From assembly GCA_001938485.1 (NCBI GenBank), contig MQRK01217620.1:1-64000 (forward strand): a stretch of 64,000 bases of DNA. Direction: 5' to 3'. Below the pieces are notes generated by a model, which was not told the DNA's origin, did not search any database, and saw only the letters and a program-made list of their open reading frames with translations. The position numbers and the translations under genes were made by a program. This document shows, in pieces, positions 10,099 to 37,280 of the stretch; the first letter of the stretch is position 1; each line of letters opens with the position of its first letter. The stretch is from Girardia tigrina. Its lineage: Eukaryota.

Positions 10099-11887
10099 TT
10101 ATTTTTTGCACCGCTTCTCATTTTTCAAATCATCAAAATTTGGTATAAAATTTTGGCTTGATGTAATTTTTAAAATTGATGCTAAATGTTCTTCAGTCAA
10201 TCTAGTTCGCTGGGCAGTTTTATTCATCTTCATTTGTGAAAAAAGCTGTTCACAAATATATGTGCTACCAAACATCGATAATATGCGAATAACAAAATGT
10301 CGAATTCTTGGAAAACGATCTGCGGGTAAGTATTCGTAAAATTCTGGAATACCAATATTTTTGGTTCAATAAAGTGTCACATCGTAGTTCTATAAACTCC
10401 ATTTGCAAACTTTCATCAATACTTTCAATGTCAACAGACATCGGAGAGCACAAAATATTTAAATGAGACTCGCTATTTTGAAAATCCGAAAACCTCTTTT
10501 CAAAATATTCTTCCAACATCTTTAATTGTTTCTCAAATTTGTCAAATTTTAATTCTGGATGTTCAAGCAAGAGTCTTAATACTTGAATAATTTGATAAAT
10601 TTTCTTTTTTTATTTGTATTTGCCACAGGGATATCTTTTGCTTGAATGTATTTATTTGGTCATACAATGAAGTTATGAGCAAGTTTCTACCCTGAAGATT
10701 AATATTGAGTTGACTGAGATGCCCAGTAATGTCAACTGAGAAAGCCAAATCATGTATCCAATTAACATCTTTCAGTTCAGAGCAGTCATAACTTTTAATT
10801 TCTAAAAAAAAGTACGATTTCGTACAACAGTTGTAAAAATCTTCTTAAAACTTTATGAATTGAAAGCCAACGAACTTCAGTATAATATGGCAAATCTTCG
10901 TATTCAGATTCCACGTCATTCAGCAATGACATAAATTCCCGATGGTTTAATCTACGTGCTCGAATAAAATTAACAACTTTAGCAACTGTTTTAAATACAT
11001 TATCAATTTTAATTACTTTTGAGCATAAGACTTGCTGGTGGATAATACAATGGAAGTGTTGAATAGATTTATTATGATGGGTTTTAACATAAGCTTTTAG
11101 TCTACCAACGACACCACGTGTACTCCAGTCATAGAAGGGGCTCCATCAGTTGCCAAAGATACCAAGTTATTCATTGGAAGATTATATTTTTTTAATAGCA
11201 ATCATAAGTGCATCGAAAATATCATCTCCAGTTGTTGTACCATGCATTGGAATTACTTCTAATAGCTCTTCAGTTATTGTCATATTCCGATCACATCTTC
11301 GAATAAAAACGGCTAACTGTGCTATATCTGTTAAATCAGCACTCTCATCGATTGCAATTGAAAACTCTTCAAAATTTAATGCCACTGAGCGAAGTTGGTC
11401 TCTTAAATTTGAAGCAATGTCAGTAATTCTATTCGCAACTGTATTTCGGGATAAACTAATGCTTTTAAATTTATTTATCATATGGAGGCATAACTCTTCA
11501 GCTGCTATTATTAAACATTCACTGATGAAATCGCATTCCATAAATGATTTTGATTTTTTGCAATTGCATGCGATAACCGATAACTAGCTTTTACGGCGGC
11601 AACATCTTCTGCAACTGGTTTAGTGAAAATGCTTTGTTGTTTACGAAGAACTGCTTTTAATTCTTAATCAAATTTTCCTCACGCATTTTTCCAACGATAT
11701 TTTTATATTCTTCATTATGGAAGGTATTGTGATGCCTTTTGTTATTGCACACCAAAATAGTTTGTCGACATATCAAGCAAAAAATTTTACCTTTTTCTTG
11801 AAGGAAAAAATATTTAATTTCCCATTTTTCTTGAAAGCAACGATGTTCACTTTCAATCGATCGTTTTTTACTCGTACTTGGCTTCAT
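10099..11887 (-). pseudogene. Frameshifted hAT transposase (GTF2IRD2/EPM2AIP1-like)
   Basis: Fragments: FQEKWEIKYFF..CLIC (BED-like), SLSRNTVANRI, FSIAIDESADLTDIAQLAVFIR, HGTTTGDDIF, MFGSTYICEQLFS. Several frameshifts. Confidence 0.9.
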
Positions 11888-13066
11888 CTACAAATTGAAG
11901 GGCTTTAATATTGTAATATTAAAGGAAAATGCATATTCTTACGGTCAAGAAATCGTTTTTATGAAATCACTTCAACCACATAAAACACAGACAGACAAAG
12001 ACGAAAACGCACATGATAATAAAATATATTTAAAAGTGTGAAGGTCAATGTGAAATCACAACTATAGAAGCATCCCGAACCTTTTTAGGACCATCTGCTA
12101 TCACCTCCCCATAGTTTCGCAGTAGACAGAGCGTTAGAAGCGCGTCGAAGAAGCTAAAACTAACGTATAACGGAACAAAACACATAAAGTACCGACAGGA
12201 CTTACACAGTGATCCGAATTGAAGAGTCAGCCCTCCCCTGATAGAGCTACGCGAGAGACACCTGCAACAATAACGCGTCCGAAGATTGCGTCGCCCTAAG
12301 AAAAGTTATTAGCACTGAAGTAGATTTAAATTAATTAAAAACCAGACGAAAAATAACAAAGTCCCTTACTGGATTTTTCAATGAAGCTAGGAGGTCATCC
12401 GACCCTCCCATGAATGAGCATCGTGAGACGAGTCCCTGAATGAAACTCACCAAGTCCTAATACCTTCTTGAGCAGAGATATACCCCTGTGAAAATACGAA
12501 AATTAATTAACAAAAACAAAGCCCAATTAAAAACTCACCATGAATCAAGAATCACCCGAAAATTTCAGCCGAGTCATCGCTGAGGCAGCCGCACACAAAT
12601 GTCCAGATTTGAAGGTGTTCCATGACACACAGGCTAGGAACCTATAATAAAATAAAAAATTTTCAAAAATTAAAAATTCTTAAGAAGACACGCTTACTCG
12701 GCCGTCCAACCAGCATTGTAGAAGTTTCTAGACTTCTTGTTGACAGCAGGCGATTGGTGGAGTTGAGACACCCCTACACGAAACCTAGAATATAAAAGGG
12801 AATCACTTTTCCAGACAGTGCGCACTTATTGACCAACAATTTTATAAAAACATCTTGTTTGAGCTATTATTTGCACACACCAACCTTAAGCAGAATTTCA
12901 AACGCACATTTTGAACGATTCGAACAATTCACATTTTAAGAACATTTCCAAGAGCATTTCCTAGCGCTATTTTGGAGGTTCAAAACTACCATTTGAGAGC
13001 ATATCGAGAGTAGAAATCGACGTGGACGAACATTCTCCGGATCCAGGAAATAAAGCGAATTGTAAT

Positions 13067-15367: not shown

Positions 15368-18114
15368 CGACAAAGACGAGGGAAATTCTGCTCCGCCGAA
15401 ATCGGCCGCAAACCTTAACATTTCAATCTTATAAACCAAAAAATTTTATTGAACGTCGTTTTAATTGTTATTAAATCAATATTTAAATTATTTGATGTGT
15501 ATATCTTGATATGTTTTTGAGAAAGTTAATCGACTAGAGATAATGACGACCTTATGTATAGGAAACTTAATTCAGTAGAAAAAAACAATTAAGGCAAATT
15601 ATCCGAGTTGGTCGTGAACGTAAGCATAGCGCGACTTCGATAATAAGGTTCGATGCAAAAAATCGTGAATCTAGGCGAATTTCGATTCCGCGTTGCTAGT
15701 TAAAGGTTGAATTCCGATAATTTAAACAAACGTTTTTTTATGACGTTTATTTATTCATTTATATTTATTTTTATACGCTTATTTACTTTTAACTTAACTT
15801 TATACGTTTACTATTTATAATCGAATTTAACTGGTTTTACTGAAAATTCTGAATATAATTTTATAAAAATAGTTTTATTAGTATTTTAAAAGAAATCGTT
15901 TTATTTTTAAATCACCAATTCGGTAAGCGGGAACTGATTTGGGGAAACCAAGGTTTTAAAGAAATTTATGAAATAAGTAAATGTAGTTTAGGATTTAATT
16001 GGATTGTCACTTAGTAACTGAACGATTTACGATTTAATAACTCCTTGAGAATCGCTTCAGAAAGCGTATGATATGGAATTAATCTAAATAGAACTAATCT
16101 ATTTTATAATATAGGAATATGAAGTTGTATGAAGATGAGGTGAAAATCTTTGAGTAATATTCTTGCTACCAAACTATAGAATATTTCAATATTGAGGTCG
16201 ACATTTTGAGGTTTGAAAGTGGTTCCCAGAACTACCTATTAACTCTGAATTTTATGAGAACATAGTAGGGATAATAAGCATAGTTTAGAATCATCCCCGA
16301 GCGGCGCTCAGCTAGATGGGGGCCCATAGCCAATCCCGTCTTTATCAGAACCCGAAGGTCCTTCAAACCCGGCACTGCTAGGCAGATGTCGGGCGAGAAG
16401 AAACGTCCGACCCATTATATAAATAAATACAAATGAATATCAAAACAGACGTTTGGTTGTGGCTGACCCTTAATAGCCACTGGGGGCTCAAGAGCTTTCA
16501 AAAATGTTTATGCTCGAGAGTGTCGTGACAATATTCTGTCTTAAGAAAGAAAATACTAATAAAACTCACCGGATTAAAATTTATATTTATGAAAAAAAGC
16601 TGCTCAAATTAGACCTAATGAAATTCGAAAACATAAAAAAACAATAATATCTAAACAAATTTCCTAACTATTTAAATTTAATAATTGTTGATGTGAAAAA
16701 TAAATAGAAATGCACTTGTATAAATTTTCACGAAGATTTGTTTTTATTTTTTCAATAAATTTGATTTTTAAAATAGATTTTATTTAGAAAATTTGAAAAA
16801 TTTGTTAAAATTTTAAAACCATTGCGGGCCGCGAGTTTGACATGCCTGTTCTATATCATTAAAATCACTTTGGGGTAAACGAAATATCGTTTCCTCACTT
16901 ACCCAAATTTTAAATTCAACCCTATATGGTTAAGGGTTTCAACGAAAATCAGTTGTAAATATTTTTGATTTATAATTAATATTTTTATTTAAAAGTACTT
17001 CTTAGTCTTTTAATTGTAGTGTTATTCTATAAATCCCTTAGATGCGCCAACAAAAGTATAAATCGGAAGAGTTTATATTTTTAAATATTAAATTATATTG
17101 TCTATATAAATAAATAAAGAAAATAAGAAAAGTTTAGATATATCTAAAGAAAAGCAAATTTAGATTAGTTAGAAGAAATAACAAATAAAAGAATAAAAAT
17201 AATAAATAAAAATTATTTATAAAGAGAAAGTAATTAAAAAAATAGAATATAAAAGGTGTTGGAAGTGCTGTTTGAAAGCTAGAAATATAACATAAAGGAA
17301 AATAAACATAGTTGAGAAAAACTCACCCGATGACGAAAAATCGACCAACCGCCCCGCCACAAGCATGAAACACGGCAGGGTATCCGCGAGGGTGACCCAT
17401 CGGTGACTGAAGGACTCACGAATAGAGACAATAAACCTTAACAGGAAAAAGAATTAATTAAAACAAACCCGAAAAATAATAAAGTTTCTTACCGAAACAC
17501 CCTGTGGAGCTGAGAGATCATCCGACCCCCCCGCATAGCCCCTCGCGAGGCGGACCCCTGAATGGAACCCGTGGAACGCTGGTCGATCCTCGATAGAAAT
17601 TATTCACCCTTAAAGAAAAAAAATTAATTAAAAACCAGACAAAAAATAACAAAGTCACCTACTGAATTACCCAATAGGGTTAAGGGGTCAACCGACCCTC
17701 CCACGAAAGATCTTCGCGCGGGCAATCCGTGGACGAAACCCGCGAAGTCGTAGGACCACCCTGAGAAAAGTTATAGGCCCTGAAAGATCAAACAATTAAT
17801 TAAGAAAAATAGAAAATTAATTAATCTTACCATGAGTCAACCCAGAATCCGAAAATAATCGTCAGCTGACGAATCATCCATGAATCAGCAGCAGGCATGT
17901 TTCAGAGATTTGGGAGTGTGTAAAGACACAGGAGCATTGGATCCTATAATAAAATAAAAAAGTTTTAAAATTTTCGAAAAATTTTCGAAGCACACTTACC
18001 AGTCTAACCAACCAGCATCGCAGAAATGTCAGACAGTTGGTTGGCGAGATTCGGTTGGACAGAGGAGGACGACAGGATAGCATATCTACAATATAAAAGG
18101 AAAATCATTTTTAA

Positions 18115-18391
18115 CCTTCACTCTGTGCATTGAAAATTTTCCGGCGTCTGTGCATAGGGGTCAATCGTACCCCATATACATTTTGATATATTTTGTAAGG
18201 AAAACTAACAAAATTTTAGTTTTTATTTAAATTTTTATTAATTATAATAACTTATTAATAACAAAAGATTATTAAACTTTAATAAATGAAATTTATTAAG
18301 CTTTGGCAGTTTAATTTACTTGGCTCAATTTTTTTTAAATCGCTTTTTAAATAGACTGGGGTCCATTTGACCCCAATGCACAGAGTGAAGG
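18115..18391. mobile_element. piggyBac-type MITE inserted just downstream of the E2 TATA box
   Basis: Perfect 18-bp TIRs CCTTCACTCTGTGCATTG / CAATGCACAGAGTGAAGG; TTAA TSD on both sides; subterminal GGGTC...ACCCC palindromes. Confidence 0.9.
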
Positions 18392-18836
18392 TTAACGAAG
18401 TCGCACAATTTTTATAAACAAATCAAACCCACGTGTGCCGTTACAACAACTATTAGAAACCAACCGCAATCTCCCGAGCGATATTCAAAACAGAGTTTAC
18501 CGTACCGACAGACGTCCCGAACTCATAACTCGACCCACGACTGAACGCTTCTACGTACAGACGCATCGACTGGTGAAGATTATTAGGCACCGATTAAGCA
18601 GTGAATTTCCCAGCAGACCTTCGGATACCAACCAAATTGTAATTGTTTTATTGATAATCTTGTTGATTTTATTAATCTAAATAAACAAATTTAATACCGA
18701 TATTCCTTTAGTTATTAATAATTATTCAGAATGTTTAATTAATGATTAATTTACATACCGTACATCCGTTTTTATTGTAAAGTAGATCCAGTAGAGTCGT
18801 CGTTACAGTCGTCGTCGCCGCCGCTCCTTGCCGTAA

Positions 18837-19175
18837 ATGTCCCAGACTAGCCTTCAGCCGAGTAAATCGATCAGGGTCGAGGACGGTCACATTGTCATAA
18901 TGATCATTGATGCGGGATCGATACAATTAAACCATGTATCGGAGGCGACCGCGTTGAACGAATTTCCGGTAGAGCGAAGCCACGAGTTCACGTCCGAACC
19001 CGATAGTCCCGCTGCGAACAACGTCCCCAGCGCTGAACATCAACTGGTTATCATCGACGTGAAGTCGATATCGATAGATGACATGTCGGGACTGACTAGT
19101 TCCCGTGTAAACGATAACCCACCGATGTGGGGTGAAAACGTTCAAATCGGCGCCTGCGACCTTCAGAATATTTAA
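18837..19175 (+). CDS. 112-aa small ORF of the long-LTR family (E2 copy), motif duplicated
   Basis: Contains HIVIMIIDAGSIQL and HQLVIIDVKSISI; preceded by the conserved GTCGTCGCCGCCGC leader. Confidence 0.6.
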   Translation: MSQTSLQPSKSIRVEDGHIVIMIIDAGSIQLNHVSEATALNEFPVERSHEFTSEPDSPAANNVPSAEHQLVIIDVKSISIDDMSGLTSSRVNDNPPMWGENVQIGACDLQNI

Positions 19176-21757
19176 ACAAATACATTTTTTTACTATTCTA
19201 GGTCTTATTATGTTATGAATTTAGGAATTGTTATTGTTTCGAATTTAGAATTATTACAAAAAACTAAAATTATTATCGAATTTTATGAATGATTTAATTA
19301 ATAAAATTTCCATTTCTACTGTTATTATGAATTTTACCGGATTCGGAATTTTTAAGGAAAACTAAAGCTCTATGAATAGTTTAATTTAATTATGATTTTA
19401 GGAATTAGGATTATGATTGATCTAATTTTTGGAACTAATAGAATTCTATCATTTACTATAATTTCACAGGAAATAATTTTACTACATAAACCGTTTACTG
19501 ATCTTATAAAAAACCAAACTTCCACTAATTTTATTTTGATACTAATTTCGACTCCGACCGTTGTGAATAAAATTTAAAATTTCTATTACGGAACAACCTC
19601 CATTTCTATACAATGATAAATATTTCGTAAGTTTAAATGTGGGAGTCGACTAAAGAGGTTCGGGATTGAATAAAATCTTAAAGCAAAATTTAATTTTATC
19701 ACTGATGTCACAGCAATTTGGTCTTGATTTGGTGATTTGCGATGAATTTTGGTCTTATAATTGGATCTGACGATTTTTAACGTACAATTTTAATTTAATT
19801 CTAGGTTCGAGCGAATTTACCATCAACAACCTTATACTTAAAACCCGTGAGTGTTAAGTTTGCCGATGAAATTGCTATTAGCAGTGCCACTTGTTACAGT
19901 AAAATTAATTGACTGCAAATAGATTTACTAATATGAGTTAGCGCTAGTTATTATAATTCTCAATTGAAACCCTAGCAAATCAAGGTGATTCAATTAAAAG
20001 GCTAGTAGTTAAGGTAGCGATATGTATCTGAAAGGACCTCCTAATAATAAACCCTATGACAACAACATGTGATGATGGCAAGAATACATAATGGTACCAC
20101 GTTACAATTCGATCATTTGGGCAGATAGTAAGCTGTGCCATCTAGACAAGCATAAGTGATGCATTCACCGGAGGAATATACAAATATACAGAGTGGTAAC
20201 ATACTCTTATCGATACTGACCCAGGTGGGGGGCCCATAGCCTATCCCATCTTTAGCCGAACCCGAAGGCCCCTTGAGCTTGGCACTGCTAGGCAGATGTG
20301 AGGCAAGACATGAGGCGTCCGACCCTATATACAATGTCATTAAAACCGAAATAAATTTAGAGCGGGTTGTGGTTGACCCTTAACAATCACTGGGGGCTCA
20401 TGAGCTTTTAAAAATGTTTACACTCGAGAGGGTCGTGACAAAGGTCATTATTAATTATGAAAGATTCAGATTTTAAAGTTCAAAACCTAACAAAAGTTAT
20501 TTTGAAATTCGATCAAGAGTGAATCTGATTGTGCGTCTCAGTAGTTAATTGAAATTAAATCTGATTACGCGTCTATACTAAGACTATATTGCGAACTGTT
20601 TTGATCAAATTTCGATTGCGAATTCGATACTTAATAGTATAAAAGTCGACATTCACTAGAGACAAAAGCAGAAAAAAATCAAACTATTGAGTCGGTAGAA
20701 GAACGACTGAATACGACCAAAATTGAGATGCATAAACCCATATTCCTAATATATTATATCTCGTTATATAAATCACGCTGTAAAGTGTGAAACAAAAGTT
20801 TTAAAATATAAACAATCCGAGTTGTCGTTAAGGTTCTCGGTTTTTAAATATAAAATCGACCAGGGGTCAAATAAAATATAATTTTCTCTTTTACTTGTAA
20901 TTAAATCGTGAATACTAAAATATATTTTTATAAAGAAAAATCACTGTGTTCTATTATTGATTTTTATAAACATACCAAACACTCAACAAATAGTATAAAC
21001 AAATAAAATGCAAAATTGCGGAAGAAGCGGAGGTGGTCAATCTGGATAGCCTGCATTAATACAATTCTGTTGGTACAGCGCACTCTCCGAAAGACGCCCG
21101 GAAGCCTATGAAATCGATCGAAAACCGTAGATGTTAAATGGTTAAATTAACCCAGATTTCGAATAATGGCGATTTTGATTTTTCCTACACGGAATTTCAT
21201 GAAAAATTTCATGAAAATTTCAATATTATACTAATTTATTTGATAAATGACGATTTCTATCATTTATTTCTAATTATATTTCTAAAAATCAATTTAGGTT
21301 AAATTTGCAAAATTTCGTTATCATCTGATTCACGGTTTTTCAGTCAAGCTCAAATTTTACTATGATCAAATATATGCTGATAAAATGAGAAATATTAGAG
21401 AAAAATGTCAGTAAATCCGCGTAAAGTTGAGATAACTCAGCATAGTCCGCATCTGTCTGTACAGCGCCATTGCCGAAAGGCCCTGGGAGCCGATTTATTT
21501 GACTGACTGTTAAATATCCATAGAATTCAAAACAATTGATAATAAAGTATAATAATTACGATTTAAAATAGAAATTTTAATTTAAAATAATAAAGAAATT
21601 TAAATTAAAATAATTAGAAATTTTAAATTTTAAATAGAAACTTTCAAAGTCGAAAATTCAGCTCACCCGTCATGTATGATCGGTATTTTTCCAGTAATAG
21701 AATAAAATTTTTTAAGTAATTATTTTATAATTGTTTTTAAAATGTAAAATTGATTAA

Positions 21758-27865: not shown

Positions 27866-27959
27866 AATATAAAAAGTTTAGATACAACTTACTTCATATA
27901 GTATTTTCTGTTCGTATTTGCTGTTTACAGTTCTAATACTGTGTTTATACAATAACTGT

Positions 27960-29172
27960 TCCATCTTTTCGTATCTTTTTTTGTATCTCACTATCAAATA
28001 CTCCATATACATACATTGTAATTGCTTTATCTTATGGAATGCCTTATGGAATTTTAAATTCAATTTTAAATTGCCTGTTCGTGGCATTTGTATTTGATCA
28101 ACATCAAAATCAGGTGTCAAGACAAATGTAAAGTAGGGGAATTTTGTTTTGAAATCATCCATAGTGATTCCATTATTCATATTTTTATTCACGAGTACCA
28201 TGTTCAATATTATAGACTTGTAGTATGCTTCAGTAAATTCATTCTTTTCAAAGTCAATTTTATATGAATCTATATAATCAATTCCTCGAGATAGGGTTAG
28301 GGAGCCAATATTACAGTTGTCAAATGCTGAGCAATATGATGCATAATATCGACTAACTTCGTTACTATCTTGAAATGTTACCAGCACAAATTTCGGTAAA
28401 CGTTCATCATTGAACAGATTGTCCTTATATTCACCATGTGATCCTTTAGAAATTGAAAACTGAATAGTTCTTGCTTTTCGAATGGGATATATAGAATTTT
28501 GATTATCAAGACACATAATATGAGCCAATCTTACTGATTCTGTTGTACGAACACGTCGTATTAATAACTTTGAACTCTCAATATATTTGAGGCATAATCT
28601 CTGTTCCAGTACCACTCCTTTCATATTGAAAGATAACTTTACTTTCATTTCGATGAATCTTGATTGTTATATTGATATTTGGTATGAGATATTTCGGTTG
28701 CTCAAAAAAGTCCAAATTTAACGGTCAGCATAATATCATCAAGGTTGATTTCTGCAACCATTTAACACTTTCAGTTGCCTCACCACACTTTTTCGTATCT
28801 GAACTTAGATTTAATGTAGTATCAATGATAGCCTTTTGATAATAACTATCATTAGTATCCTCAATCTTTGTATTGTTGAGAAACACGGTCATATCTTTAC
28901 ATAAGCAATGAAAGAGGTAATTGCTCTGGGTTAATTTGGAAATGTCAACAGTAATGTCTTTTCTTGATTCATCAACTGCTTTTATTTTAATGGTAAGCAT
29001 TATATCATTCATATCTATGTATTCATCTTCACTACCGATAATATCAAACTCTATGAGATTTATTATACCCACTAATACTATCCTTAGGGTAAATATCTTC
29101 AAAAGCATATGATTATATAACATCTTGTGGCGGAGCTGCACTAAATATGTCCAATTCCGATTTGGTACTCAT
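27960..29172 (-). pseudogene. Polinton/Maverick (adintovirus-type) major capsid protein, frameshifted
   Basis: MSTKSELDIFSAAPPQ, IEFDIIGSEDEYIDMNDIMLTIK, NYLFHCL..VFLN, DNLFNDERLPKFVLV, FTFVLTPD, RTGNLKLNLKF. Confidence 0.85.
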
Positions 29173-31642
29173 TCTGAGAATATATTTTTCATACGTTTTG
29201 TTTCTTTGTTTATATCTAAACCTTTCCTTTTTCTTCCTCCACCACCTTGATCCATTATTGAAACAGCCTCACGAAAAGCACCTTTAGCATTGGACTTAAT
29301 TTCTGGTAATATATCAGCAGCAGCTTCCTTCAATATGTTACGACACGACATTTATATCACCTTACATATAGCACAAAGAATAAGGGAATAGTCTAACTCG
29401 ACTATTCCCCAGTATGTTTAGATAGGCCCCATCTAACATAGTTAACCTCATGAACCTTAAAGGCTCAGAAATACCACGTCAGACGGAGCCGAAGACTCGA
29501 ACCACTGCCAGATGATCGTAACTCATGTGAGGACCTTAAGAACCCTATAAAATAACAGCATTATTCAAATACCTTAAATTAATTAATAAAATTAATTACT
29601 GGAAAGTGCAAGCGCACTAGAGACCCGTGAATCAGCCATCTGCTGACTTCCGCGACAGTTGATGATAGGCAGCCTCGGATCGCGAACCTATAAACAAAAT
29701 AAATCAGAAAAACAGAAAGACCCCTCCCAACGATACCTTTGTAAACATGATAACCACAGACGGACGTCGGAGAATTAACGACAACGGCAGCGACATCCTG
29801 GACGAGTAACCTATAGATTAACAGATGTCAGATAAACAGTCGTCAATGAAAATGTCTAGCTTGCAATGATGATTTCCCCCGTTCCTCCCACTGAAAAATC
29901 CTGTCACTGAATAGCGGATAAACATCTGTCACACCTGTTGTTGATATTTCGCTGTAGATGAGCAATTTTATCATACAGTAACGACCCCCTCCCTTCCATC
30001 TTATCACTTAACAGGATATCGGCGAACAAACACATGTCAACAGACACATACAGATTACCCGAACGCGTCGGACAACGTATGCGTCTAATTAGATATAAAT
30101 ACTCGATGCATCTTTGCATGCAGGCACACAAAAAACGCACCTTTTACCAATATTTACGCACTTTTATACTACAATTTTATTTTACAATTTATAATCATAA
30201 ATTTGAACTATTCCTGACGATTATATCACGCAATATTTACTATCTATCAATAAAACGGAACAATTAGTGACTAGCAAGTATGATCTGTTCTTGAGTTTAA
30301 TTTTAATTTTTTATTCTGTTTATTATATTCCATTCTCATTTGATTTATACTCTCATTCATTTTGTTATTATTATCTCTTACAAACATTAAATATAACTTA
30401 TTAAAATTATTCCTTTTATTTAATCCGTATTTGGTTAGGAGTTCAGTAGATTTTATTAGAGCTATGTACTGCTACTTGATTAATTAGAGGTTCGAAAATA
30501 TTGAAATTTATCGCTGGTCTCTATCTACCGCTCCATGAGGGGGTTCCGAAGAGGAGTTTTGAGATGAATAACGATCTTAGATTGAGTACTGATCGTGTGA
30601 GAGACGTGACGAAAAGGGGTAGAGGTATGACAGGTGAGTGTGGCACACTGGCAACAAGAGAGACCGCGATGTAAACGTCGAGGTCTTATGTGTACATAAT
30701 GTAGATAGAACTTCAAATAATATGTGGTAGAATGGTTTGTCGAGTTGTTTTATTTAAATTCCTCCTTAATTGGAATAATTCTAGTTTCGATGTAATTTCT
30801 ACACTAAGAATTATTAATAACTTTTCTTGAACAAAAATAATTCAGCGGATATGTGAATCCTAACTATCGTTCTAGTTTAGTTTGCGCTTAATCTCAATGT
30901 AAAAATTTATTTAAATGAATTACCTACGGAGTATTTCATGATGAATAATAGTAAACATTATATACACATTATAACTATAAACATATTCGAAAATCCATAT
31001 CTTAGTGATAACGTCGTGAATAAAATGAAGACTAAAATAAATTGAGAATCGTTATTATAATCAATGAAAACTATTGGTAGTGACGAAGAAGCTTTTGGAG
31101 ATGTCGAAGGTCGATCACGAAAGTTCGATTGTCGCCTATTTCCTCGAGGCTCTCTTCGTCTGACGTAATTAATAAATGAATACATCAAAGTACTTACGAA
31201 TAATGGAAAACAATATCAACCCCTCGGGCAACACCCGTTACTGGTTAGAACCCGAAAGCGCTCCAAAGCGCATAAAACTTGTTGATATGTGTGGAGCAGG
31301 CGCGTCCGTTCCCTTAAGTAACGAATTCAAAGCGTGCATGAGTTGCCGTTGAACTCAAAAAACGGATGGGGGCTCTGAGTCAACAAAAATGTTGTCGAAA
31401 GAGGGGAACGCGACAAATGCTTCAACAGGCTTTTTAGTACGATTCAAGATATTTTTACCAGCACGTAATATTGCTTTACCAGCAATCTTTGCTACAGGTA
31501 TACCGAATTTCCTCATTATAGGAATTGCCTATCTGCCTAATGTAGCCTTCCAATTACCTCCATACCGTTTACCTCTAAAGTATGGAAGATTACCACCCTG
31601 TAGAGGACCACAATACATTCGTACAATATCTCTATCAATCAT
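29169..31642 (-). pseudogene. Polinton basic core (pVII-like) protein split by E3 (31642-31416 plus 29335-29169)
   Basis: The joined halves read MIDRDIVRMYCGPLQGGNLPYFRGKRYGG...KPVEA-LKEAAAD...DQGGGGRKRK...NIFSE*, with QGG/GG motifs. Its stop overlaps the MCP ATG (ATGA). Confidence 0.7.
29336..31415 (+). mobile_element. E3: divergent 2.08-kb solo-LTR-like element
   Basis: TGTTACGA...CGCGACA ends; TSD AATA/AATG (1 mismatch). Removing it restores the Polinton ORF. TATAAATA at ~30094; 3' end shares GAACCCGAA, GCGTCCG and TGGGGGCTC with E1, E2 and E4. Confidence 0.8.
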
Positions 31643-31751: not shown

Positions 31752-32568
31752 TAGGGTTGCCAGATGTCCGGTTTTGAACCGGACAGTCCGTTAAGTCAAC
31801 TGGTTGTTCAGTATAAAAAAATTATAAAAACCGGACTTACATTTGACGGTATTTCTCCCGAAGCTTATTTCCACAATCTTCAAATATGAGGTAATCGTAT
31901 TTTTTTATTTTTTTGGTCGCTCAAAGTTTTGAAGGACAAATAAACATTCCTAAATGGTAATTTTTTTATAGTAGTGGGCTATGGATAAATTTATTTTGGT
32001 TTAATACGAAATACAAAATATTAAAGTATTAATTCAAAGTTTTCTGCTGGTGATAAAGGGATAAATTAAATAATAAATTTTGTGGTATTTAGAGTTTGAA
32101 CTATTAAGTGAAAACTTTAATATTAAATTTGTTTTTTTATAATTTTTTTTGCCTCAAAAAAACACATTGAAGCTGAAACCGTTGCAACTTCTTCTCAACG
32201 ATTAACATCTTTCTTTGCATCGAAAGATAATTCCCAAAGCGATGCAGTAGCCCTCGCTGAATTGTTGCATATTTATCATGGTGTAAAACACCATTTATCA
32301 TACTTGGCTCAGGAATGTGGAATTAAAATTATAAAACAGTCCTTTTCTGATTCTCAAATTGCTAAAAATGTTACAGCTGGAGGTACAAAAGCTTCGGCAG
32401 TTGTACAAAATATTTTGTACCCTTTTTCAATTGAACTTGTGATAGAAGATTTTAAAAACAACGTACCGTTTTCTATTGTTACGGACGCGTCGAACAAAGG
32501 TAATCGTAAGCTATTTCCTGTGGCAATTCAATTTTATTCTTTACAAAATGGATTGAGCTTTAAAATAT
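31752..32568 (+). mobile_element. 5' part of a hAT (Blackjack-like) transposon
   Basis: Terminus TAGGGTTGCCAGATGTCCGG; transposase fragment YHGVKHHLSY..FSDSQIAK..TKA..FSIVTDASNKGNRKLFPVAIQFY. Truncated at E4. Confidence 0.75.
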
Positions 32569-32569
32569 C

Positions 32570-34562
32570 AATCGGGACCGGAGCGTCTAACAATCAACCG
32601 ACGAGCAAGCGATTCATAACCCGAAAGCGAGAACCCGAGAATTTCCGGCGCTAGGACGAATACCCGATTCAGAGCTAAACTAACGCCAGGGGAACCCAAT
32701 TACGCGTTGATACACGAAGTCCGACTACATTCCTCCGCGACCGATTTTTCTACTGGGCACAATTGTTATTGTCGATGTAAATTTAATTTTTGTATTTATT
32801 TGTCGTTTTATTATGAATTTCAATAATTTATATATTTATGAGTTTTGTTTATTTAACATTTTATTTAATCATACTCTATAGAAGTAGCTTACCTTTTCAT
32901 AGAAAGAATTAAATAGCGCCGTCGCCGCCGCCGACCGTCGTTCCCGTTATGAATTCTCACGTTACGAATCCACTTATCGAGCGTCTAGAGAATATTCTGG
33001 GGCTCCTCCCCGAGTCCGAGGTAGATGAGAACAACAATGCATTCCGAGCCGCATTGCCACTAATTATTATCGACGTGAGGTCGATAGCCCTGAGCGAGAT
33101 GCTCGAGTCGACTGGGCCGCACCATTTAGACTAACGGCGCGGAAGCTGCCCATCAACATTATGACTTAATAAATAAAGTTTTATAAACCGCAGTTTAATT
33201 CTTTCGTTCGATTTAATACTTACTTCAATTTTGTAACTTTAGGAATTTTATTAGTGAATTTTTATAATGAATATTAACACAAGTTTTGTTATTGAGTCTT
33301 TAATATTAGTAGTGAACTTGAATATCAGTTTTATTAATGAATGTTCGAGAGTATTTAATAGACGTGAAAACAAATTTAATTCGTGAATATGTAAGGGTAT
33401 TTAATCAATAATAAGCGGGAGTATAAATTTGCTAGCGAGTGTTTAGAACTATTTTAGCGCAAATAAGAAGCTCGAGTGAATTTTGTATTTAGTTTTTTTG
33501 TGTTACTAACAGCTCCTCTCTTAATTATTTTAATCAGAAAGGTTATAAATACCTTGGTTCGTAAATCCCGCAGTAACTCATCAAACGTTATGAATATAAT
33601 CCGTTCAACGGCAAGTATCATTTAAAATATTACTTAAGGTCGTTGATTAAAGTAAGGCATTAAAACAAATGCGAAGTCAGTCAATTTTAAGAAATTCGTC
33701 TTTTACTGATAGTTTTTCTTTTGCGATTTGATTACTATCGAGAGGTATTTCATAAAAAAAATTTTTTATATAAATACATATAAATCATAAATTGAGAAGT
33801 TTTACAGAATATTCTAACATTGGCCGAACGGAACTTAAATTCAAATTATCGTTAAATTCTTCTAGTTTCCTATTTTATTTTAATGATTTTACCACTAATA
33901 TTTTGGCGGGCTTCTCGACTCAATTAACAATTGTTAAGAACCAAGCGATAATTCCAAGGTTAATTCAATTTAAAACTCAGACGTTATCTGAGTTTCATCG
34001 AGTCATGCAGGGAAAAGCGAATTAAAGGGTGGGTATACTCGTGAATAGTTTAACGAGTTAAGCAATAATAAAATTTCAAGAACCGCCGATGTTAAGGAAC
34101 AGATTTGACAACAGGGCGTGAGGCGTCTGCTGTCGATAGCTGACCGATAAGATACTGTCGTACAACAAATTGAGTGGTGCGGATCTATTATACGGTTATA
34201 GCGAACCTTGACAACTTATATGTTTGAGCGCGTAAAAGTACAGAAATATTATCTCATAAAACACAATAGTACCACGACACATAAAGGTATAAGATACATC
34301 ATCCCCGAGCGACACTTTGCTAGGTGGGGGGCCCATAGCCCATCCAATCTTTACCCGAACCCGCAGGCCCTTCAGACTCGGCACTGCCAGGCAGATGTCG
34401 AGCGAGAAGAGGCGTCCGACCCATAAATAACTATATTGCATCATTGAGTATTAAAAAGTAGCATACGAATAATATAAACTGAAATCGGGTTGTGACTGAC
34501 CCTTAATAGTCACTGGGGGCTCCGAGCAAACCAAAACTGCTACAAACAAGTGGGTCGTGACA
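32570..34562 (+). mobile_element. E4: 5'-truncated copy of the long-LTR family
   Basis: Contains the sORF (32949-33134) and the conserved 3' region ending GGGTCGTGACA. Confidence 0.8.
32949..33134 (+). CDS. 61-aa small ORF of the long-LTR family (E4 copy)
   Basis: LIIIDVRSIALSEM motif; GTCGCCGCCGCC leader just upstream of the ATG. Confidence 0.55.
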   Translation: MNSHVTNPLIERLENILGLLPESEVDENNNAFRAALPLIIIDVRSIALSEMLESTGPHHLD

Positions 34563-34595
34563 AATCTCACTGGTCCGTTCATCGGGCACGCCATT

Positions 34596-35114
34596 GAGGA
34601 CATCGGATTTTTCTTCGACCTGCATCATTGTGACACTCGGATCAATTTTAGGTGGAAGTGGAATATGAATTTGATATTTAGCATGGTCGATTTCCACTCT
34701 CATTCTCTCTTCAATGTCGGTTGGAGCGACAGTTTCAGCCAAATCAACGAAAAATTTAGCAAATTGTTTCACATCAATAATATAATTAGGTTCTTCACTG
34801 TCAGCATTAATAATTTTTGTGCATCTCATTTCTTGCAAAGGATGTCCGCTCGATAAACAAACTTTATCCGCAACCAAGTCCCATAAAGCCGGCGCTTCTA
34901 ATCCCGTGTCCGATTTCTCAACTCCCGCCAATTCATTGACTCGTTTCAAGATACTTTGATTATCATCTTCACATTGTTTTATTTCTTTACTATATGGCGC
35001 AGCACCATAAGTTTTCAACAAGGCAATAATATCTCCTTCATCGAGCGATTTAATTAGTTTTTTATCCTTATCATCTTTTAATTTTCTCTGATCATTTCCC
35101 AGATAATCAGGCAT
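34596..35114 (-). pseudogene. PSMC2: Truncated 26S proteasome ATPase subunit 7 (Rpt1) N-terminal copy
   Basis: [86 protein letters not shown]. Stops before the AAA domain, has substitutions at invariant residues and is intronless over this span. Confidence 0.9.
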
Positions 35115-35443
35115 TTGCTCAATAATATCTCTTTAAAAAATGGCTGCTTTTAACTCAAATTCAAAATATCACTGCACCAAAAAATTTATTTATAATCAAA
35201 TTAATAATATTATTCGATTAAAACAAAATCGAATTAACCGAATATTTTTTTCGGAAAAACAAATCAACACCAAAAAAATCATTATCATTTAATTCAAGTT
35301 ACTCCCAGATTGGCCAATCTATTTTTAGATTGGCCAATCGTGGGTCGTCTATTTATAGACCGAATTTTGAGTAGAATTCCGTTCCACAGTGTCATTAAGA
35401 AGAGTTTCAGGGTCACAAACATCCAATAGATATATATATATTC

Positions 35444-37280
35444 CGTGGTGTGGATTTCATTCTAGTTTATTTGGATGACATTCTCATCGGCAGCGAAAAC
35501 ATAGTGGAACACAAAACACACCTTGCAACTAGATTACAAATCCTTAAGACGAACGGGTTAAATCTCAATTTAAAAAAAATGTGAATTCAACAAAACTCAA
35601 ATCAATTTCCTTGGACATACGATCGAGAAGAATACAATCTATCCTATCAAAGAGAAAATCGAGGCAATAAATTCAATTCCACCTCCCAAAAATGTTCAAG
35701 AAATCAGAAGATTTTGTGGAATGGTAAACTTTTACCACAAATTTATTCCAAATTGTTCAAACATCCTAGCTCCACTCACTGACATGATTAAGAACAAAAC
35801 CAAACTCCAAATAATTCATTGGACAGAGGAATCGATCAAAACATTCAATCAAATCAAAGATGAATTAAATAACATCACAAAATTACATATGTTACAACCA
35901 GATAGTAATCTAACGTTAACCATCGAATTTTGGGATAGGTGCAGCTTTAACACAAACTCATGACAACCAAGAAGTTCCAATATCATTTTTTTCGCAAAAA
36001 CTTAACAAAACGGAAAGTCGTTACTCCACTTTTGATCGTGAATTGTTAGCAATACACAGATCAATCAAACACTTCCAAGATTATCTTGAACATCTAACTT
36101 TTACAATTAATACAGATCACAAACCTTTGACAAATGCATTAAACTTAAAAAATCCAAGTCCAAGACAACTTATACAAACATGTTACATCTCACAATTCAA
36201 CTGTAACATAAAATACATACCAGGTAAAACAAACATCGTGGCAGATTTTTTGTCCAGAAATATGGTTACTACAATAAATTTTTTCAATTTTTTAGACATT
36301 AAAGATTTAGAAAATAAACAAGACTCCACAATAATCGAATGTAAAGACCAATCTTTCATCTTAAAGAAAATTAAAAACATCTGGTACGACAAGTCAATAA
36401 CGGGAACCATTAGACCATTAATACCTGAAGAATTAAGATCTTTATGCATCAAAAACATCCACGAACTCGGACACTATGGTTTCAAAGCAACTTACCATAT
36501 ATTAAAACACCAAGTCTGTTGGAAAAATCTCAGAAGACATAAAACAATTCATTCGAAACTGTACCATTTGTAACAAGAACAAAATAACCAAGAGACACCC
36601 TATAAAAAAATCAATTACGTTGAATTAAACAAATTAGAACATTTACACTTAGATCTAACAGGTCCACTTCCACCAAACAGAAATTATAAATACTTATTAA
36701 CAATCATAGATAGAACAACCAACTGGTTCGAGATCATCAAACTCAAAGATATCTCTGCAAATTCCATCTGTAACAAATTCGAATCAGAATGGATAGCACG
36801 CTATCCACCACCAAAAAGATTAATTACAGATCAAGGGAAACAATTTTTATCAAAACAATTTCAAAATTTATGTGAAAAATTCAATATAAGGAAAATTAAA
36901 ACAACTTACAATCCACAATCAAACGGGAAAGTGGAAATTTTTCACAGATATTTAAAACAAACACTACGAACAAAATGCAACAACTCAGATTGGCTGGAGA
37001 CTTCCGGAAGTTTGTCTTGCACTCAGACTCAAACCAAATAGTCTTGATGATAAATCACCTTATGAGAAATTAGTTGGAGTAAGATTCAATTTTGAACTCT
37101 TTAAAAGAACAAGTGAAGAACATTCCAACAGCACTAACAAACAAACAGACGCAAAAACAGCATACGTCAAAATACAAAATACTAAGGGTTTTGACGATAG
37201 ATACGATGGGCCATACAATATAATTAAAACAGGCAAGAACACAGTAACACTCAATATAAACAACAAAGATAAAACGTAAA
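35444..37280 (+). pseudogene. Ty3/Gypsy pol remnant (RT, RNase H, integrase)
   Basis: VYLDDILI, RFCGMVNFYHKFIPN, RYSTFDRELLAI, TDHKPL, HELGHYG, HLDLTGPLP, ITDQGKQF, YNPQSNGKVE; frameshifted. Confidence 0.92.

Follow-up and report, generated by a model that had tools for sequence, protein, structure and literature searches.

The first 64,000 nucleotides (nt) of Girardia tigrina contig MQRK01217620.1 (the window) contain four copies, E1 to E4, of the high-copy long terminal repeat (LTR) of a giant retrotransposon. In the presumed U5 region of each copy, about 50 nt inside the LTR 3' end, a probable H-type pseudoknot is followed directly by one and the same 9-mer. This 9-mer is complementary to the final 9 nt of the mature host tRNA for proline (tRNA-Pro) and repeats the start, or core, of the true primer site of the element. 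Knot and inner site are tentatively regarded as a dock where the primer tRNA would be capped and would not prime, in an RNA domain that would set up reverse transcription. The observations behind this proposal are the pairing pattern, the identity of the 9-mer, a primer site of 18 nt that follows 5' LTRs, the association of the LTR with gag-env-pol, and the lack of copies ending at the inner site. All evidence comes from one genome, and genome-wide counts refer to its 1.43-Gb assembly.

Probable pseudoknots and inner sites in the window

An earlier reading of the window by a model that saw the sequence alone had reported the four motifs, each with an invariant sequence behind it, and had placed the E2 motif about 50 nt from the LTR 3' end. 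All four motifs were present at the reported positions, with the same 9-mer directly after each, and a scan of both strands of the window gave only these four occurrences of the 9-mer, all next to motifs. The LTR 3' ends of E1, E2, E3 and E4 were located at 16530, 20440, 31415 and 34562, where the likeness to other genomic copies stops sharply; the reported location was thus correct, and the distance was 47 to 50 nt in most of 186 copies scored from the genome. The last 250 nt or so of E1 to E4 align at about 70%. Two points had escaped the sequence-only reading: the complementarity of the 9-mer to the tRNA-Pro 3' end, and the place of the knot within a larger folded domain. The motifs are as follows.

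20364 to 20390, plus strand: H-type pseudoknot of E2 (stem 1, 20364-20368/20375-20379; stem 2, 20369-20374/20385-20390; A-rich loop 3, 20380-20384)
20391 to 20399, plus strand: inner 9-nt complement of the tRNA-Pro 3' end in E2, covering CCA, the discriminator and five acceptor-stem bases, and identical to the opening 9 nt of the true primer site
16454 to 16489, plus strand: pseudoknot and inner site of E1 (stem 1 of 4 bp; inner site 16481-16489; T-arm box 16348-16354; LTR end 16530)
31340 to 31375, plus strand: pseudoknot and inner site of E3 (5 + 5 pairs; inner site 31367-31375; T-arm box 31248-31254)
34487 to 34522, plus strand: pseudoknot and inner site of E4 (inner site 34514-34522; T-arm box 34357-34363; LTR end 34562)

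The pattern of the 9-mer followed after 34 to 46 nt by the LTR end gave 1,953 exact matches in the genome, compared with 8 for a reversed control pattern. None of E1 to E4 has a primer site behind the LTR; flanking DNA follows instead.

Evidence for the pairing

For a blind test, 50 copies were aligned with MAFFT, and the 11 proposed pairs were compared with 500 shuffles and with slid controls. The proposed positions were paired in 94.5% of cases, a value that none of the 500 shuffles reached, while the slid controls gave 31 to 57%. Five pairs had changed on both sides (four in stem 2 and one in stem 1), and 7 of the 500 shuffles were as good; related sequences can beat shuffles of this kind. 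The alignment also misplaced the stem-1 register of the E3-type rows. The second blind test used a tree-based null with 112 of 120 rows, 240 columns and 12 null alignments. Here the stem-2 pair 20373-20386 was the top pair of the whole domain and was not reached by any null pair, and the runner-up was in the upstream hairpin (expect value [E] 0.08).

Searches with divergent copies as queries led to four lineages, called main, E3, L121 and L206 types. Scoring covered 186 of 213 copies; 10 copies had no recognisable LTR end and 17 had at least two changes in the 9-mer or a poor 5' match. With registers set by hand for each lineage (from the nearest natural copy, with a loop 2 of 0 or 1 nt), a choice that leans toward the structure, stem 1 was paired at 0.98, 0.95, 0.88 and 0.80 in the main, E3, L121 and L206 types, respectively, and stem 2 at 0.98, 0.75, 0.92 and 0.89.

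In stem 1, pair 20364-20379 changed from G-C to A-U in the L121 type and pair 20365-20378 from G-C to A-U in the E3 and L206 types, and the junction pair changed from U-G to U-A in the E3, L121 and L206 types. Within the window, the swap of E3 is the only one in stem 1, and stem 1 of E1 has only four pairs. In stem 2, pair 20370-20389 was swapped from U-A to A-U and to C-G, and pair 20371-20388 from G-C to C-G; pair 20372-20387 alternated repeatedly between G-C, G-U and A-U, and pair 20373-20386 between U-A, C-G and U-G. On a tree built from columns outside the knot (173 rows), changes common to at least three copies kept the pair in 21 of 25 cases, compared with 67 of 143 private changes (Fisher p = 0.0008). 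G-U combinations filled 196 cells and A-C combinations 31. As 117 of the G-U cells came from the one junction pair, the ratio without it was 79 to 31, which still favours the plus strand and upholds the sense strand proposed in the sequence-only reading.

Loop 1 of such a pseudoknot requires at least one base. All 11 pairs can therefore not coexist, and the fold should consist of 4 + 6 or 5 + 5 pairs. The outer stem-2 pair is G.A in 17 of 20 E3-type copies, and that G would then form loop 1.

Several results count against a complete knot. No stem-1 pair was among the top 45 against the tree-based null, where the E3 rows were probably out of register and events were few. The fourth stem-1 pair is U.U in 13 of 19 L206-type copies, and the fifth is G.G in four main-type copies. 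An old group (L405 to L407 and L409), which stands outside the counts, has weaker stems and a partly decayed 9-mer. Furthermore, 5 of the 20 rows binned with the L121 type do not group with it.

These results could mean that only the stem-2 hairpin forms, with stem 1 and the 9-mer kept for their role as DNA or as a protein-binding sequence. Only stem 2 was significant in the blind tests, and its hairpin appeared in nested folds of three of the four window copies. This explanation is nevertheless very improbable, as two different stem-1 pairs were doubly swapped in two lineages (15 and 40 copies), the junction changed from U-G to U-A twice, and only one shared change breaks a pair. Pairing of the first with the last strand, in either register, reached 0.24 to 0.89, below stem 1 in three of the four lineages and level with it in the L121 type (0.89 compared with 0.88). 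Stem 2 taken alone is close to certain from the comparison of copies. The full H-type pairing is probable with good confidence; its stem 1 depends on two lineage-level double swaps with hand-set registers. The compensatory changes that the sequence-only reading had seen in both stems are thus strong in stem 2, whereas those in stem 1 amount to these two swaps and were not significant blind.

Conservation of the inner site

The 9-mer is identical in all four lineages and abuts stem 2 without a spacer in each. It was exact in 136 of 184 copies that had not been chosen by the 9-mer pattern, although the profile that located these contains the 9-mer. Of 30 copies chosen by a query that stops before it, 28 had it exact. 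Departures per site were 0.011 to 0.041 in the 9-mer (rows with at least two 9-mer changes had been dropped beforehand), compared with 0.022 to 0.10 in the last 9 nt of the LTR and 0.23 to 0.44 in the flanks. The departures were scattered, and the tenth base was not conserved.

All 30 copies found by the query independent of the 9-mer ran on to the normal LTR end and none ended at the inner site, which argues that the inner site is not a productive start. It yields no integrated ends at a rate visible in this sample of 30 copies.

The possibility that the 9-mer is the real primer site, with the LTR ending at the knot, was rejected, as similarity continues for 50 nt and the 18-nt site follows there. 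A derivation of U5 from a decayed antisense tRNA, or a Helenus-type tRNA-derived LTR, was likewise rejected, as sense and antisense alignments to tRNA-Pro were matched by 12 to 51 of 200 shuffles. No tRNA gene was found in the window.

The predicted fold of the U5 domain

In a consensus fold predicted from 23 copies, the knot is one part of a conserved folded U5 domain of about 250 nt. The average identity of this domain between lineages is about 65%. Its other predicted parts in E2 are listed below.

20223 to 20251, plus strand: upstream hairpin with a G-run, from the consensus fold; absent from E3
20258 to 20264, plus strand: unpaired 7-nt T-arm box, complementary to tRNA-Pro nt 49-55 (5' strand of the T stem and loop); candidate signal resembling a primer activation signal
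20267 to 20316, plus strand: long covarying hairpin abutting the terminal helix (pairs 20273-20310, 20269-20315 and 20272-20311)
20317 to 20325, plus strand: 5' strand of the terminal helix, which encloses the knot and inner site in a loop; both strands changed in E3
20396 to 20405, plus strand: predicted 3-bp mini-hairpin over the 3' half of the inner site, from the consensus fold and with no double swaps; columns 20402-20404 conserved at 0.97 to 0.99
20430 to 20440, plus strand: 3' strand of the terminal helix and LTR 3' end (CA); in 5' LTRs elsewhere, the 18-nt tRNA-Pro site follows 2 to 5 nt further on

The loop closed by the terminal helix starts with an A/T linker of variable sequence, followed by the knot, the 9-mer and a stretch rich in A. 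Through the helix, the T-arm box would come to lie beside the LTR end and hence beside the true primer site. The T-arm box was exact in 58% of 173 copies.

Two other functions for this region were rejected. A frameshift or readthrough knot does not fit, as a slippery heptamer was present in only 23 of 186 copies and lies within the variable A/T-rich linker, and no open reading frame (ORF) of at least 100 codons spans the E2 site. A polyadenylation hexamer precedes the knot in 76 of 186 copies, and a role as polyadenylation signal is not conserved.

The host element

The true primer site is an 18-nt complement of the host tRNA-Pro 3' end. The LTR end followed by a short spacer and the core of this site gave 172 matches in the genome and none for the control. 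Among 48 site-bearing copies, all 18 nt matched in 23 and at least 17 in 39, and the spacer was 3 to 4 nt in 46. The tRNA-Pro end itself had 13 genome matches, and tRNA-Pro was called in seven of eight fetched loci. The host tRNA-Pro genes are in tandem in loci L081, L083, L084, L086 and L088, with a spacing of about 650 or 220 bp.

One locus (L085, G000:C175996) carries on the minus strand an E3-type LTR end followed by a 37-nt perfect complement of tRNA-Pro(AGG), about twice the length of the normal primer site. The complement stops a few bases before the anticodon loop. It looks like a fixed read-through of a full-length primer tRNA, as would be expected if full-length tRNA-Pro primes.

The site-bearing LTRs are followed by accessory ORFs without a convincing Pfam match and then, about 7 kb on, by Gag, which is contained in three elements fetched via the primer site. 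In the other direction, six stretches upstream of Gag matches (L178, L181, L184, L188, L191 and L194) carry the knot-bearing LTR end and the primer site; the other stretches were short, gapped or without them. The joined loci L179 and L180 contain an open frame of 4,142 codons; about 7 kb upstream of it, this LTR end and primer site are present as well. The order in this giant frame is capsid, CCHC, a candidate ubiquitin-like part, mononegavirus-type fusion protein (Env), protease, reverse transcriptase (RT), RNase H and integrase. The ubiquitin-like and dUTPase matches were in the right order but weak (E 0.001 to 0.005, under the Pfam cut-offs), and the dUTPase, after the protease, was seen only in L147 and L149. 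The contig stops before any 3' LTR, and the distance from the primer site to the end of integrase is about 20 kb. MATH, BIR, ankyrin and BCL2-like domains were not found at E of 0.01 or less in five frames or at E of 0.1 or less in five accessory ORFs, a scan that covered part of the upstream ORFs.

By its domain order, the element is a giant env-bearing Ty3/gypsy retrotransposon with a Burro-like layout. The label Burro-like was chosen instead of Burro because these four domains were not found and because the comparison with Burro was made by description only.

The first 4 kb after the primer site of L063, L067, L075 and L079 contain several coiled-coil-like accessory ORFs, partly duplicated and without a convincing Pfam family. 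L065 and L067 are internally deleted and end in a short piece of the 3' LTR.

Contigs from public RNA runs (shares of 0.14 or less) cover the U5 domain and the leader, and also the region upstream of the TATA box. They were not used as evidence because start, end and strand are not visible in them. The knot profile had no match at E of 1 or less in 80 metagenome loci with 24 to 61% RT-integrase identity, a result that says little because these loci are distant and mostly without LTRs.

Possible function of the knot and inner site

The sequence-only reading had proposed a functional RNA element at the U5 end, with possible roles as an internal ribosome entry site (IRES) domain, as a nuclease block or in the control of reverse-transcription initiation. 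The pairing pattern appears to be under selection and the anatomy of the region favours the last of these roles, while the other two found no support.

The following course of events is proposed for the tentatively favoured dock. In the genomic RNA, the terminal helix would gather three parts at one junction, namely the LTR end, the T-arm box and the true site of the primer, with the knot looped out. The true site would be folded back on the leader and thus be closed until a chaperone opens it. The tRNA-Pro or its 3' fragment may pair with the inner site, so that the tRNA 3' end stacks on stem 2. The knot would then face the bound tRNA from its first base and block extension, and the primer would be held and not extended. 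In this manner the inner site could hold or hand over the primer without starting DNA that lacks the integrase end, and the T-arm box may help the true site once the chaperone has opened it.

Parts of this course have parallels. Short sites suffice to bind the primer tRNA in Ty3 and Ty1 (PMC11381356, PMC4974528), with lengths of 8 to 11 nt if Gypsy is included (PMC1635307), and 3' tRNA fragments are described as competing at primer sites. The leader fold-back has a counterpart in HTLV-1, for which PMC11251516 describes a leader folding back on the primer site. In the present element, 43 of 47 predicted folds had the true site base-paired to the leader. A C-rich leader strand 25 to 40 nt behind the primer site folds back on it; its sequence varies and the pairing is kept (for example in L009, L044, L047 and L052). 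The idea that the leader pairs in register with the 5' half of the tRNA was weakened, since divergent leaders lose that match yet keep the pairing to the primer site.

A more specific form of the proposal is a second tRNA site built for the purpose. The knot would present the 9-nt match to a second tRNA-Pro or 3' fragment in a form that is not extendable, and the site would serve as a primer reservoir or as a decoy for tRNA fragments that silence LTRs, while the true site is folded away. This form is possible but doubtful. If the inner site does bind tRNA or its fragments without priming, LTR elements would have a means, new in kind, of handling the primer or of escaping silencing by tRNA fragments. 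The dock idea is addressable on an RNA of 300 nt.

A number of points weaken the case for a dock. The 30 copies without truncations are all close relatives of E4, and such ends could just as well be rejected by integrase. For the T-arm box the excess over chance is modest, as 9 of 300 shuffled tRNAs do as well, and exact boxes were few in the minor lineages (3 of 20 to 8 of 19 copies). A predicted duplex of the 9-mer with the C-rich leader has -12.1 kcal/mol, compared with -13.5 kcal/mol for the true site with the leader, and explains seven of the nine 9-mer bases without any tRNA. Nested folding places the 9-mer mostly in hairpins in E1 and E2, and the 3' half of the 9-mer has a conserved local partner. 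Because of these hairpins and this partner, access to the inner site is not assured.

The main rival is an intramolecular switch, which like the dock would act in starting reverse transcription. The 9-mer would compete for the C-rich leader strand, the knot would hold the 9-mer in place, and the pairing would release the true site without any tRNA being bound at the inner one. The predicted folding of the leader on the true site in most copies, the similar energies of the two leader duplexes and the local partner of 9-mer bases 7 to 9 would all fit this. The leader varies among subfamilies (L009, L032, L047 and L052), however, while the 9-mer does not. The predicted tRNA duplex around the inner site is much stronger (-22.6 kcal/mol over a 23-nt stretch), and conservation stops exactly at the end of the 9-nt tRNA-end complement. 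The switch is considered rather unlikely.

A signal for protein binding or packaging is less likely again. Here the zinc knuckle of Gag would bind the knot and the exposed G-run for packaging or dimerisation, and the likeness to the primer site would be left over from a local duplication. The Gag of the element has a CCHC knuckle, the sequence conservation in the 5' strand of stem 1 and the loop-3 adenines would suit a bound protein, and the Ty1 pseudoknot is described as a main Gag-binding site. Such a signal leaves the match of all nine bases to the tRNA end, pyrimidines included, unexplained, and a packaging role of the Ty1 knot could not be shown according to the part of PMC3681743 consulted.

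An IRES domain that brings ribosomes to ORFs behind a very long leader is improbable. The distance from the TATA-like box of E2 to the LTR end is about 2.3 kb and includes 37 AUGs, and the leaders of Gypsy and murine leukemia virus (MLV) have IRESs (PMC1635307). There is, however, no conserved frame or start after the knot, and a stop-free frame follows it in only 41 of 186 copies, so that an IRES of the intergenic type found no support; the long leader may still hold a conventional one. The search of Rfam with positions 11000 to 38000 at E of 5 or less gave one chance match to a small nucleolar RNA outside the elements and nothing else, and thus no IRES, and the conserved single-stranded motifs point toward the primer tRNA. 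An exonuclease block, which would leave behind a short RNA with its start at the knot, is hardly credible: a compact pseudoknot does lie on the 5' side of a folded region, but exonuclease-resistant RNAs need a ring of 15 to 16 nt, in flaviviruses around a three-way junction (PMC8374639), and the two-stem knot of 27 to 28 nt has neither and had no Rfam match.

Other features of the window

Two of the LTR copies were delimited further.

17259 to 20440, plus strand: LTR copy E2, truncated at the 5' side where another repeat cuts it, with a TATA-like box at 18092 and an ORF of 112 codons at 18837-19175
29336 to 31415, plus strand: E3, a solo LTR of 2,080 bp with TG...CA ends and a 3-of-4 target-site match

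A relative (L370/L090) has a perfect target-site duplication of 4 bp (4 of 4). A fifth LTR copy, at about 41300 to 39970 on the minus strand, has a promoter-side part like that of E1 and E2 and is interrupted twice, by a satellite and by a gap in the assembly; an end with the knot was not seen in it. A short ORF follows a CG-rich run within the LTR, at 18837-19175 in E2 (the 112 codons above), at 32949-33134 and at similar spots in E1 and the fifth copy, and had no Pfam match. Tandem sub-repeats of about 170 bp are located upstream of the TATA-like box (17422-17816 and 12156-12540). A small inverted-repeat element at 18110-18395, just behind the TATA-like box of E2, was also present in unrelated RNA contigs.

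E3 is located among broken ORFs on the minus strand (27878-29335 and 31420-31640). Two frames scanned gave no Pfam match; we take the ORFs to resemble Polinton-type capsid and core genes. Directly beyond the LTR end of E4, a minus-strand frame (34503-35132) matches the OB domain of 26S proteasome subunit 7 (E 2e-26), and because this frame adjoins the LTR end, E4 appears to lie in or beside a host gene or its remnant. The regions 35400-37280 and 31752-32600 contain a separate broken gypsy pol with RNase H and integrase, and what is presumably a hAT-like fragment, which interrupts the 5' part of E4.

Comparison with known systems

RNA structure at retroelement primer sites is known almost wholly from human immunodeficiency virus (HIV), Rous sarcoma virus (RSV), MLV, Ty1, Ty3 and Gypsy. 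Gypsy of Drosophila, like the present element, is an env-bearing Ty3/gypsy retrotransposon with a second short site, of 11 nt, which binds tRNA-Lys2 and is dispensable for cDNA synthesis (PMC1635307). The second site of Gypsy lies close to the 3' end of the RNA, and its partners are the anticodon and T stems. The one described here is in U5, 50 nt before the LTR end, adjoins a pseudoknot and is complementary to the acceptor end, as is the true site.

Ty1 also has a pseudoknot near the primer site of an LTR retrotransposon, as well as extra tRNA contacts (PMC3681743, PMC4974528), and its leader pseudoknot affects reverse transcription and not packaging (PMC3681743). The Ty1 knot is a long-range fold that joins R with gag, in contrast to the local H-type knot of 27 to 28 nt in the LTR with its own tRNA-end complement. 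Ty3 resembles the present case in an 8-nt match to the acceptor end and further tRNA boxes (PMC11381356, PMC4974528). Its parts are at opposite RNA ends and match different tRNA regions, whereas the element here already has a full 18-nt site. In the HIV-1 primer activation signal and the U5-T-loop contact of RSV, a U5 box is complementary to the 5' strand of the primer T arm, as with 20258-20264, and is proposed to bind there (PMC3185550). The consulted part of that source describes neither a pseudoknot nor a duplicated acceptor-end site, and the HIV signal is disputed.

The Burro elements of planarians share the single giant ORF with Gag-CCHC, mononegavirus-type fusion protein, protease, RT, RNase H and integrase, and the upstream accessory ORFs; their ORF also includes a ubiquitin-like part before the fusion protein and a dUTPase after the protease (PMC6431247), for which the present element gave the weak matches mentioned above. 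The part of that report consulted describes no LTR RNA structure or primer site, and the MATH, BIR, ankyrin and BCL2 domains of Burro were not found in the present element. The Helenus and Cassandra terminal-repeat retrotransposons in miniature (PMC10886601) carry pieces of small RNAs in the LTR and so also have tRNA-related sequence there; theirs is a sense tRNA copy that acts as an RNA polymerase III promoter in a miniature element, in contrast to short antisense boxes in a giant one.

In the portions consulted of the open-licence literature, including PMC12789967, PMC8532177, PMC4580426 and PMC10886601, no description was found of an acceptor-end site beside a U5 pseudoknot or of the LTR structure of this element. 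Pseudoknots near primer sites and extra tRNA sites are already known. The comparison of copies gives a covariation-backed model of the whole initiation domain for a giant env-bearing animal lineage. Measured against that literature, its new feature would be a second acceptor-end site within the LTR, placed directly against a compact knot.

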